NCBI GenBank assembly: GCA_036380925.1
Contig: DASVDW010000175.1
Location: 55-64,054 of the forward strand
DNA from: Acidothermaceae bacterium
Lineage (GTDB): Bacteria > Actinomycetota > Actinomycetes > Acidothermales > Acidothermaceae
DNA length: 64,000 nt
Direction: 5' to 3'
Below are positions 60,336 through 64,000 of the stretch, piece by piece; position 1 is the stretch's first letter; each line of letters opens with the position of its first letter. The position numbers and the translations under genes are program-made. The notes beneath the pieces are model-generated. The model was not told the origin of the DNA, made no database searches, and worked only from the letters and a program-made list of their open reading frames with translations.

Positions 60336-60939
60336 CTTCCTGCCCGGGCCGTTGCGCGGTTTCGGCGTCACCTTCGGCACGATGTTCCGGCCGGTCAACA
60401 CTGAGCTCTACCCCGACGAGAAGAAGCCGACGATGCCGCGCTTCCACGGTCGGCACGTGCTGAATCGCCACCCTGACGGCCTGGAGAAGTGCGTCGGGTG
60501 TGAGTTGTGCGCCTGGGCCTGCCCGGCCGACGCCATCTACGTCGAGGGCGCCGACAACACCGACGAGGAGCGGTACTCGCCCGGCGAGCGCTACGGACGC
60601 GTCTACCAGATCAACTACCTGCGCTGCATACTGTGCGGGCTTTGCATCGAGGCTTGCCCGACGCGCGCGCTCACGATGAGCAACGAGTACGAACTCGCCG
60701 ACGACAACCGCGCCGACCTCATCTACACCAAGGAGCAGCTGCTCGCGCCCCTTGCGCCCGGAATGGAGTTGCCGCCGCACCCCATGCGCCTCGGCGAGGC
60801 GAAGGACTACTACCGTGGCACCCCGGCCGCGCACGTCATGAGCGGCGACGTCGAAGACAGCAGCCGGCAAGGCAGCGTGCTGCGGCAGGAGCAGGCGCAC
60901 TCCGACGTCCAAGACAAGGCAGAAGGAGTCAACCGCTGA
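60316..60939 (+). CDS. nuoI: NADH-quinone oxidoreductase subunit I
   Basis: Two 4Fe-4S ferredoxin motifs: [12 protein letters not shown] and [12 protein letters not shown]. Confidence 0.94.
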
Positions 60940-61784
60940 TGCCGACTGCCATCCTCGCGTCCGGCCTCAACGCCAGCGGCCCGGAGACCGCGGTGTTTTG
61001 GATCCTCGCGCCGATCGCGGTCATCTTCGCCCTGGGAATGGTCTTTTCCCGGCACACCGTGCACGCCGCGTTGATGCTCGGCGGCGTGATGCTCATTCTC
61101 GCCGTCTTCTATGCGGCGCAGGACGCGCCATTCCTCGCGTTCGTGCAGGTGATCGTCTACACCGGCGCCGTCATGATGCTGTTCTTGTTCGTGCTGATGC
61201 TGGTCGGCGTCGACACCAAGGACAGCCTCGTCGAGACGTTGCGCGGCCAGCGGTTCGCCGGAATTGTCGCCGCTATCGGCTTCTTGCTGCTGTTGTTCAC
61301 CGGCATCGCGAACGCCGGCATCAAGGTCAGCAAGGGCCTGCACTCGGTCAACTTCGCCGACGGCCAGCCGACGCGGGGCGTGCAAAACGCCGGTGGCAAC
61401 GTGTACCAGATCGCGAAACTGCTGTTCGACCGCTACGTGTTCGCGTTCGAGGCGACGTCCGCGTTGCTCATCACCGCCGCGCTCGGTGCGATGGTGCTGG
61501 CGCATCGGCAGCGGCATGCTCCGCGGCCGACGCAGCGCGAGCTCATGCAGCAGCGTTTCAAGTTCGGCACCCACCCGACGCCGCTGCCGGGCCCTGGTGT
61601 GTACGCGCGGCACAACGCCGTCGACACGCCTGCCCTCCTGCCCGACGGCTCGCCGTCCCCGCTCAGCGTCCCGACATCGGTTGAGTTGGTCAGCCAAAAG
61701 CACGGCCGCGAACCACGGCCAGCCGAGCTCGGCTCGTCCGCGGCCGCGCATCACCCCAGCTCAGGGAAGGGTCAGACCGAATGA
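60939..61784 (+). CDS. nuoJ: NADH-quinone oxidoreductase subunit J
   Basis: ATG 60939 overlaps the nuoI stop. It has a hydrophobic N-terminal half ([24 protein letters not shown]) and a long hydrophilic tail. Confidence 0.9.
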
Positions 61785-62080
61785 GCCCTACCTTTTACCT
61801 GTACCTGTCGGCGATTCTCTTCACGATCGGCACCCTCGGCGTGCTGTTGCGCCGCAACGCGATCGTGGTCTTCATGTGCATCGAGTTGATGCTCAACGCC
61901 ACGAACTTGGCGCTGGTCACCTTCTCACGCGTGAACGGCACGCTCGACGGCCAGGTGATGGCCTTCTTCGTGATGGTGGTGGCGGCGGCTGAGGTCGTCG
62001 TGGGGCTTGCCATCATCGTGTCCGTGTTCCGCACCCGCCGCTCGGCCTCGGTCGACGACGCGAACCTGCTGAAGTACTGA
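61781..62080 (+). CDS. nuoK: NADH-quinone oxidoreductase subunit K
   Basis: 99 aa with three TM helices and the [22 protein letters not shown] motifs. Confidence 0.94.
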
Positions 62081-62150: not shown

Positions 62151-63851
62151 GTGAACCTTGCAGCGCTTCACACCGCCGCGACGTTGAGCCCGACCGCACA
62201 CACCACCGGGGCCTTCTCCTTCACCTGGTTGCTCGTGGCAATCCCGCTTGCCAGCGCGGCGGTGCTCCTGCTTGGCGGACGTCGCACCAACCGTTGGGGC
62301 CACCTCCTTGGCGTCGCCGCGCCGCTGGCGTCGTTCGTGCTCGGCGTCGTGTTGTTCGCACAGCTGCTTGGAAAGCCGGCGTCCGAGCGCAGTTTCGACA
62401 ACCACCTGTTCAGCTGGACGTTTGTGGGGAACTTCAAGGCGCCCGCCAACTTCCAGATCGACCCGCTGTCGATCTCCTTTGTGCTGCTGATCACCGGCGT
62501 CGGCTCGCTGATCCACATCTACTCGGTCGGCTACATGGCGCACGACGCCGGTCGGCGGCGGTTCTTCGCGTACATGAATCTGTTCGTGTCCGCGATGCTC
62601 CTGCTCGTTCTCGCCGACAACTACCTCGCGCTATACGTCGGCTGGGAAGGCGTCGGCTTGGCGTCGTACCTGCTGATCGGGTTTTGGTACCACAAGCCGT
62701 CGGCCCGAACCGCCGCCACAAAGGCGTTCGTGGTCAACCGGGTTGGCGACTTCGGCCTGTCGCTGGCAATCATGTTGATGTTCGCGACGTTCGGCACGTT
62801 CAGTTTCGCCGGCGTGTTCCCGTCCGCAAGCGACGCTGACCACGCTGCGATGACGGCGATCGGCTTGCTGCTGCTGCTCGGCGCATGCGCGAAGTCCGCG
62901 CAGGTGCCACTGCAATCCTGGCTCGGCGACGCGATGGAAGGCCCGACGCCGGTCTCCGCGCTCATCCACGCCGCGACCATGGTGACCGCCGGCGTTTATC
63001 TGGTGGCCCGATCAGCGCCCATCTTCAACGTGACGCCGACCGCCCGACTCGCGGTCACCGTCGTCGGCGCCGTCACGCTGCTGTTCGGCGCGATCATCGG
63101 CTGCGCGAAGGACGACATCAAGAAGGCCCTGGCTGCCTCGACGATGAGCCAGATCGGTTACATGATGCTCGCGGTCGGGCTCGGCCCGGCCGGTTATGCG
63201 TTCGGCATCGCGCACCTGCTCACCCACGGTTTCTTCAAGGCCGGGCTGTTCCTCGGCGCCGGCTCGGTGATGCACGGCATGAACGACGAGGTCGACATGC
63301 GCCGGTACGGTGGGTTGGCCAAGTACATGCCGTGGACGTTCGCGACCTTCGGCCTTGGCTACCTCGCCATCATCGGCTTCCCCGGGCTTTCCGGATGGTT
63401 CACCAAGGACGCCATCATCGAGGCGGCCTTCCACAAGGGCGGCACCTCGGGTTACCTCCTCGGTTCGGCGGCGCTGCTCGGCGCCGCGATCACCGCGTAC
63501 TACATGACGCGCGTGATGCTCATGACGTTCTTCGGCGAAAAGCGCTGGGCGGACGACGCGCACCCGCACGAGTCGCCCGAGGTCATGAAATGGCCGATGG
63601 TGATCCTCGCGATCGGTTCGGTCGGTCTTGGCTACCTGCTCGTGCTCGGCAGTCGGTTCGCGGACTTCCTCGCGCCGGTCGTCGGCGAGGCGGAAGACAC
63701 CGCCTTCAAACCGATCGGCCTGGTCGGCGTGTTGACCTTCATCGTGATGCTGGCCGGCATCGGCGTCGCGTATCTGCAATACGGACGACGCCGCGTGCCA
63801 GCGGTCGCTCCCGCCGCCGGCCCGCTTGTGGTGGCCGCGCGGCGCGACCTG
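62151..63851 (+). CDS. nuoL: NADH-quinone oxidoreductase subunit L, first ~567 codons only (no stop; frame continues into unrelated sequence)
   Basis: Absent from the ORF track because no stop occurs before the window end. GTG 62151. My translation gives [74 protein letters not shown] and ...[10 protein letters not shown], where NuoL proteins normally continue with Y-G-D-A-F-N (start of the lateral helix). Confidence 0.88.
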
Positions 63852-64000
63852 CTCGGCCTCGCCTCCGAGCAGAGCCTGTACAACCTGGCCGCCCGCACCA
63901 TCGAGCTGGAGGTGGTCCCCGCCTGCCGCGCGTACGGCGTGGGGATCCTGCCCTGGAGCCCGCTCGCGGGCGGGCTGCTGGGCGGGGCGCTCGCGAAGGC
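63852..64000 (+). CDS. internal fragment of an aldo/keto reductase, fused in frame to nuoL; runs off the window
   Basis: The translation [49 protein letters not shown] matches the conserved AKR core (Q-x-x-YNL, E-x-E-[VI]-[LIV]-P, G[IV]G[VIL]-x-[PA]-[WY]-SPL-x-GG-x-L-x-G). Confidence 0.7.

Follow-up and report, generated by a model that had tools for sequence, protein, structure and literature searches.

A very probable assembly chimera at a contig end: nuoL joined in frame to a foreign aldo/keto reductase fragment

Chimeric DNA molecules arise in vitro when the polymerase changes templates at a short homology in the course of amplification, as in PCR-mediated recombination and the chimeras of MDA. 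Contigs that combine sequences from different species are also described in short-read assemblies, especially those made by MEGAHIT (bioRxiv 10.64898/2026.10.15.759294; metaMIC, PMC9661791). In CAMI benchmarks, interspecies chimeric contigs occur in 69.4% of near-complete MEGAHIT MAGs, and detection and correction of chimeras leave aside the outermost 1 kb at contig ends (bioRxiv 10.64898/2026.10.15.759294). A further class of error is treated by Chen et al. (2020, Genome Res, PMC7111523), who describe local assembly errors and non-unique scaffold ends in MAGs, and also contig ends that overlap by n or n-1 nucleotides, where n is the largest k-mer.

The structure considered here lies at the end of contig C175 of a draft genome (MAG), where nuoL runs without interruption into part of an aldo/keto reductase (AKR) gene. 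Like the interspecies chimeric contigs, C175 shows an abrupt switch from Actinomycetes to Myxococcota-like sequence within one contig, a gene cut at the switch, an intact locus in another assembly, and a draft built with k = 141. It differs from them in the very small size of the foreign piece (187 nt) and in its position right at the end of the contig, inside the ignored outer 1 kb, where a chimera would go unnoticed. It differs also in its product: as nuoL and the AKR gene have eight codons in common, in the same frame, an open "fusion protein" takes the place of two truncated genes. As in the cases of Chen et al. (PMC7111523), a consensus presumably unsupported by reads has led to a wrong public protein, and contigs of the bin can be linked again by way of a related assembly, as that paper recommends. 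Here, however, the wrong sequence is drawn from another phylum, and neither a repeat nor a strain variant within the genome is involved. With chimeric molecules formed in vitro the locus has two things in common: the templates resemble each other over a short stretch where they are joined, and the foreign part is about one fragment long. From the comparison of sequences I conclude that the last 187 nt of C175 are almost certainly an artefact, a scrap of a foreign AKR gene joined to nuoL, and not a biological fusion.

The contig end and its reading frame

By the window I mean the whole stretch of DNA that was analysed, 64,000 nt in length, comprising bases 55-64054 of C175 (64,098 nt); the contig ends 44 nt beyond it. 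The draft from which it comes consists of 242 contigs totaling 3.28 Mb, is 88% complete with 1.5% contamination, and contains no Ns anywhere in the assembly. A comparison of all contig ends found 31 pairs that overlap by exactly 141 nt, and on this basis the draft is a short-read metagenome assembly, made by an iterative de Bruijn procedure with a largest k of 141, the default of MEGAHIT. Examples of these pairs are C75/C89, C73/C112, C66/C184, C64/C201, C45/C159, C212/C230 and C109/C131. Six further pairs of contig ends overlap by 63-109 nt. The overlapping contigs are probably joinable, which would leave considerably fewer than 242 pieces.

The contig end can be compared with a contig from a JGI metagenome, L107 (23,767 nt), which carries an uninterrupted nuoH-I-J-K-L-M-N and encodes a NuoL of 645 aa, P0242. 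With about 0.2-0.3% of positions different from those of the MAG, L107 represents a near-identical population, formally not the same genome. The features at the end of the window are as follows.

60939..61784, plus strand: nuoJ; coordinates carried over from the gene table of L107 (PF00499 Oxidored_q3, 281 aa) through the 99.8% identical, gap-free alignment, with the open reading frame present.
61781..62080, plus strand: nuoK, 99 aa; an open reading frame whose equivalent in L107 has PF00420 (Oxidored_q2).
62151..63857, plus strand: genuine 5' part of nuoL, 569 codons; recognized by its Pfam domains, by the identity of aa 1-569 to P0242, by a gap-free DNA alignment to L107 (99.81%) that stops at 63857, and by homology in seven relatives that ends there too.
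63834..63857, plus strand: 24 nt encoding AARRDLLG, a stretch found in either parent gene family; from a codon-by-codon comparison, with the breakpoint inside the stretch or at its 3' edge.
63858..64000, plus strand: foreign AKR fragment, an internal piece with a total length of 187 nt, whose last 44 nt lie between the window end and the contig end; recognized by Pfam Aldo_ket_red, by identity, by GC, and by its absence from L107.

The open reading frame that starts with the GTG at 62151 continues to the window end with no stop, encoding NuoL for 569 codons and AKR sequence thereafter. The original prediction had called this frame NuoL correctly but had given it about 567 codons, two short of the point, 63857, to which it actually extends. 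Its product has both the N-terminal and the central domain of NuoL, Proton_antipo_N (PF00662) at aa 89-139 with 74.3 bits and Proton_antipo_M (PF00361) at aa 155-438 with 255.6 bits. The NuoL part is 65-97% identical to proteins named NuoL, and its named relatives come from Acidothermaceae, Actinomadura, Actinoallomurus and Streptomyces, which makes the MAG that of an uncultured actinomycete. The surroundings are those of a nuoK-nuoL-nuoM-nuoN locus: the window contains nuoJ and nuoK ahead of nuoL, nuoM and nuoN lie on another contig of the bin, C95, and all are collinear with L107. Compared with NuoL of other Actinomycetes, then, residues 1-569 are normal, as is the operon order nuoH-I-J-K-L, and the difference is confined to the C-terminal 76 residues, which have been swapped for foreign sequence and which are unaltered on C95. 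The NuoL domains are followed by Aldo_ket_red in one and the same open reading frame, bearing out the predicted in-frame switch into an AKR core without stop or frameshift.

To place the join, the last 746 nt of the contig were compared with thirty relatives. Homology to nuoL stops at base 559 of this query, which is window position 63857, and matches of AKR type start around 63830-63854. The switch point is thus put at 63857/63858, 187 nt before the contig end and 143 nt before the window end. At this site nuoL of the relatives reads GCG CGC CGC GAC CTG CTC GGC GAC GCG TTC AAC GAG. C175 agrees with them through GAC CTG CTC GGC and then goes on CTC GCC TCC GAG CAG, encoding LASEQ.

A shared AARR had been proposed at 63834-63845, where C175 has gccgcgcggcgc (A-A-R-R). 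The place was right, but the similarity extends further, over 24 nt (63834-63857) and eight codons, AARR(D/N)LLG, read in the same frame in both genes. AKR proteins have AARRNLLGL, AARRGFLGL or AARRHLLGV at this site. Within the 24 nt, C175 matches nuoL of the relatives at 21-22 positions and Anaeromyxobacter-type AKR genes at 20-21. On either side the affinity is to one parent only: the 30 nt before AARR are nuoL-like (19-22/30, as against 11/30 for AKR genes), and the 186 nt after the shared stretch are AKR-like (90.3% identity to the gene of Anaeromyxobacter sp. K, about 35% to nuoL).

A join of this kind might also have come about in the cell, by rearrangement or horizontal transfer. DNA from an Anaeromyxobacter-like source would then have entered nuoL through recombination at the microhomology; NuoL would stop short of its lateral helix, and nuoM and nuoN would be parted from it. 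Short homologies do give rise to illegitimate recombination, and the deposited sequence does have an open, in-frame fusion. The open frame might be taken as a sign of selection, an idea I reject: the frame is uninterrupted across the join because the shared codons lie in the same frame in both parents, and this accounts for it without selection.

Affinities of the last 187 nt

The AKR sequence at the contig end is far from a complete domain. In place of some 290 residues with the catalytic N-terminal half, it covers only about positions 154-213 of the 291 in the profile. The Pfam match in the product of the open reading frame (Aldo_ket_red, PF00248) takes in profile positions 155-199, at aa 568-612, and the last 50 residues, tested by themselves against this model, reach 26.7 bits, above its cut-off of 24.

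The tail is closest to an AKR of Anaeromyxobacter sp. K, with 93% identity in amino acids and 90.3% in nucleotides. Among 5.8 billion protein clusters, its best full-length relatives are that protein (93%), followed by those of Polyangiaceae, Binatia and Roseiflexaceae (80-87%). When each species is represented by one genome, the best are from Polyangiaceae (87%), Anaeromyxobacter (83%) and MAGs labeled "delta proteobacterium" (81%). AKRs from actinobacteria reach about 70% at most. The MAG has its own intact orthologue of the tail's AKR subfamily, on C45, and this is 62% identical to the tail in amino acids.

Composition changes along with affinity. GC content in the tail is 75.8% and GC3 is 100% over 62 codons. 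Of 10,594 equally long coding windows in the MAG, only 7 (0.07%) reach both values. Across the join GC3 goes from 0.88 to 1.00, and the homologous segment of the C45 gene has a GC3 of 85.5%. Relatives and composition therefore switch sharply at one point, as in a chimeric contig.

The original prediction had proposed looking for an AKR 3' half beyond base 64000, where the contig comes to its end after 44 nt, and for a 5' half elsewhere in the assembly. Neither half is there: the rest of an Anaeromyxobacter-type AKR, whether N-terminal or C-terminal, was not found in the bin. The affinity of the tail to Anaeromyxobacter, and hence to Myxococcota, was not foreseen by the original prediction. That just 187 nt of the AKR gene are present, with no other part in the bin, speaks against its having been acquired by the cell.

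Four AKR fragments at contig ends of the same draft (on C81, C201, C124 and C226) were considered as the missing halves and rejected, since their identity to the AKR of Anaeromyxobacter type is only 35-42% and they have no overlap with the tail. A scan of JGI metagenome contigs for an exact 42-nt piece of the tail gave 0 matches, as did the positive control, an exact 60-nt pattern from nuoL of L107, so that the empty scan for the tail does not count as evidence of its absence.

The native continuation of nuoL

A Pfam search of the whole draft found Proton_antipo_M four times: in nuoL on C175, in two adjacent genes at the start of C95, and once on C109. C95 begins tC AAC GAG TCG... and encodes the rest of nuoL, 73 residues that end in LLLVRG*, then nuoM and nuoN. 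The 3' end of nuoL and the genes nuoM and nuoN, which the original prediction had suggested might be sought elsewhere, are thus found in the same bin. The contiguous C-terminal extension of NuoL (lateral helix and last TM helix) is missing from C175 as deposited; it is on C95, in 73 residues identical to those of P0242.

The NuoL parts encoded by C175 and C95 are respectively 93.5% and 94.5% identical to their counterparts in a genome of the same genus, and in seven of seven relatives the two parts are separated by exactly 9 nt, the codons for D-A-F. The genuine end of C175 and the start of C95 must therefore be 7 nt apart. Of the continuation that had been expected for an actinobacterial NuoL, YGDAFNE, the D-A-F is what is seen in the lineage, with YGDAINE in one relative.

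L107 provides the same order in one piece. The last 4,707 genuine bases of C175 correspond to L107:1-4707, with 99.81% identity and no gaps; L107:4708-4714 is GACGCGT; and C95:1-3224 corresponds to L107:4715-7938, with 99.69% identity. The 187-nt tail of C175 has no counterpart in L107 by DNA alignment. The proteins agree: aa 1-569 of P0242 are identical to the product of C175, DAF comes next, and the remainder is identical to all 73 aa of the piece on C95. An uninterrupted native locus is thus represented in the near-identical population by L107 and P0242, and in the MAG itself by C95 from the same bin, as would be expected if C175 is chimeric. In the organism nuoL is complete; it is in the record that the gene is split. 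The prediction that NuoL lacks its lateral and last TM helices, with nuoM and nuoN displaced, is refuted by the content of C95 and by the intact operon of L107. The alternative that had been offered, namely that the assembly was mis-joined or a contig boundary lies where the two genes share a short sequence, draws support from both and from the foreign nature of the tail.

The fused product of 631 aa, P0123, constitutes a cluster of one member, on one contig, among the 5.8 billion protein clusters. Of all the hits to a query region across the join, P0123 alone covers both sides, every other match being to the AKR part only. One protein from a JGI metagenome, P0002, was examined as a possible second fusion of nuoL with AKR and rejected: part of the interior of this AKR is present in duplicate and was matched twice, and there is no NuoL part. 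P0002 (362 aa, on a contig of 1,593 nt) begins with the duplicated internal AKR fragment, which is fused directly to its own N-terminal region (LCLGTMNFG). It too was probably created by faulty assembly, at the conserved AKR motif involved in C175.

These results bear directly on the idea that the recombination took place in the cell. The bin itself contains the remainder of nuoL together with nuoM and nuoN, beginning 7 nt beyond the break and free of foreign sequence; a population 99.8% identical has the operon intact; and the fusion is a singleton. Furthermore, C175 and C95 both dead-end within 7-187 nt of the shared stretch, which argues against a real clonal junction, since such a junction would assemble straight through. 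Reads would be needed to exclude it directly, and the case, including the presumed lack of read support across 63857/63858, is built on comparing sequences. Even so, a real rearrangement seems very unlikely. One might still suppose a minor strain that truly has nuoL fused to acquired Anaeromyxobacter-like AKR DNA at the eight-codon microhomology, and hence a complex I without the lateral helix of NuoL, the assembler having caught the first 187 nt of this allele. I consider that extremely improbable.

The fourth protein with Proton_antipo_M, at C109:6778-7659 on the minus strand, belongs to an open frame of 616 aa that lies outside the nuo operon. It may be a subunit of an Mrp-type antiporter or a second NuoL-like protein.

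Routes to the join and its consequences

The native chromosome almost certainly has the order nuoL(1-569)-DAF-nuoL(573-645)-nuoM-nuoN, with C175 followed by GACGCGT and then C95. The tail very probably derives from an Anaeromyxobacter-like organism (Myxococcota) present at low abundance in the same sample, the scrap having become attached to the actinobacterial nuoL during construction of the sequence, where both genes encode AARR(D/N)LLG in frame.

Two routes to this end may be envisioned. In silico, a local coverage gap in nuoL would have produced a dead end, a short shared k-mer would have linked this to the path of the rare organism at low k, and the iterative assembler would have carried the chimeric contig forward like a read, up to k = 141. 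In vitro, template switching at the shared stretch would have given a chimeric library molecule. It would take reads to separate the two, although the in vitro route gains some weight because the closest AKR genes share only 20-21 of the 24 nt. A mis-join in the graph at k = 21 would need an exact run of at least 21 nt, and Anaeromyxobacter sp. K matches at 20 of 24 positions, with the proviso that the closest AKR gene found is 90% identical in nucleotides and is not the actual parent.

The same final picture, a foreign scrap at a contig end, would result from an error in handling after assembly, unrelated contigs having been concatenated during scaffolding, binning, polishing or deposition with neither a graph error nor a chimeric molecule. 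Scaffolding or editing of the ends is at odds with the absence of Ns and with the native 141-nt overlaps kept at 31 pairs of ends. The position of the join is also telling: it lies inside a stretch similar in both genes, which is expected of a join guided by sequence and not of blind concatenation. I regard such an error as barely credible, and the junction as the work of one or the other of the two sequence-guided routes.

The matter is one of data quality only. The public record has a false "NuoL-AKR fusion" of 631 aa, and complex I of the MAG looks truncated. A normal nuoA-N operon is restored if the last 187 nt of C175 (everything after window position 63857) are trimmed and the contig is linked to C95 across 7 nt. 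C175 provides a clean example of an in-frame chimera that lies within 1 kb of a contig end, where current misassembly detectors do not look. Surveys of fusions or domain architecture among the proteins of MAGs should accordingly be wary of any gene that extends past the end of its contig.

Other AKR genes in the draft are cut as well. Four of the 15 other AKR paralogues in the bin are interrupted by contig ends, at C81:7359-7733 (plus strand), C201:25-366 (minus), C124:10425-11018 (minus) and C226:5-844 (plus). By a rough estimate this is double the rate expected from the density of contig ends, and it may be that this assembly breaks repeatedly at conserved AKR motifs.
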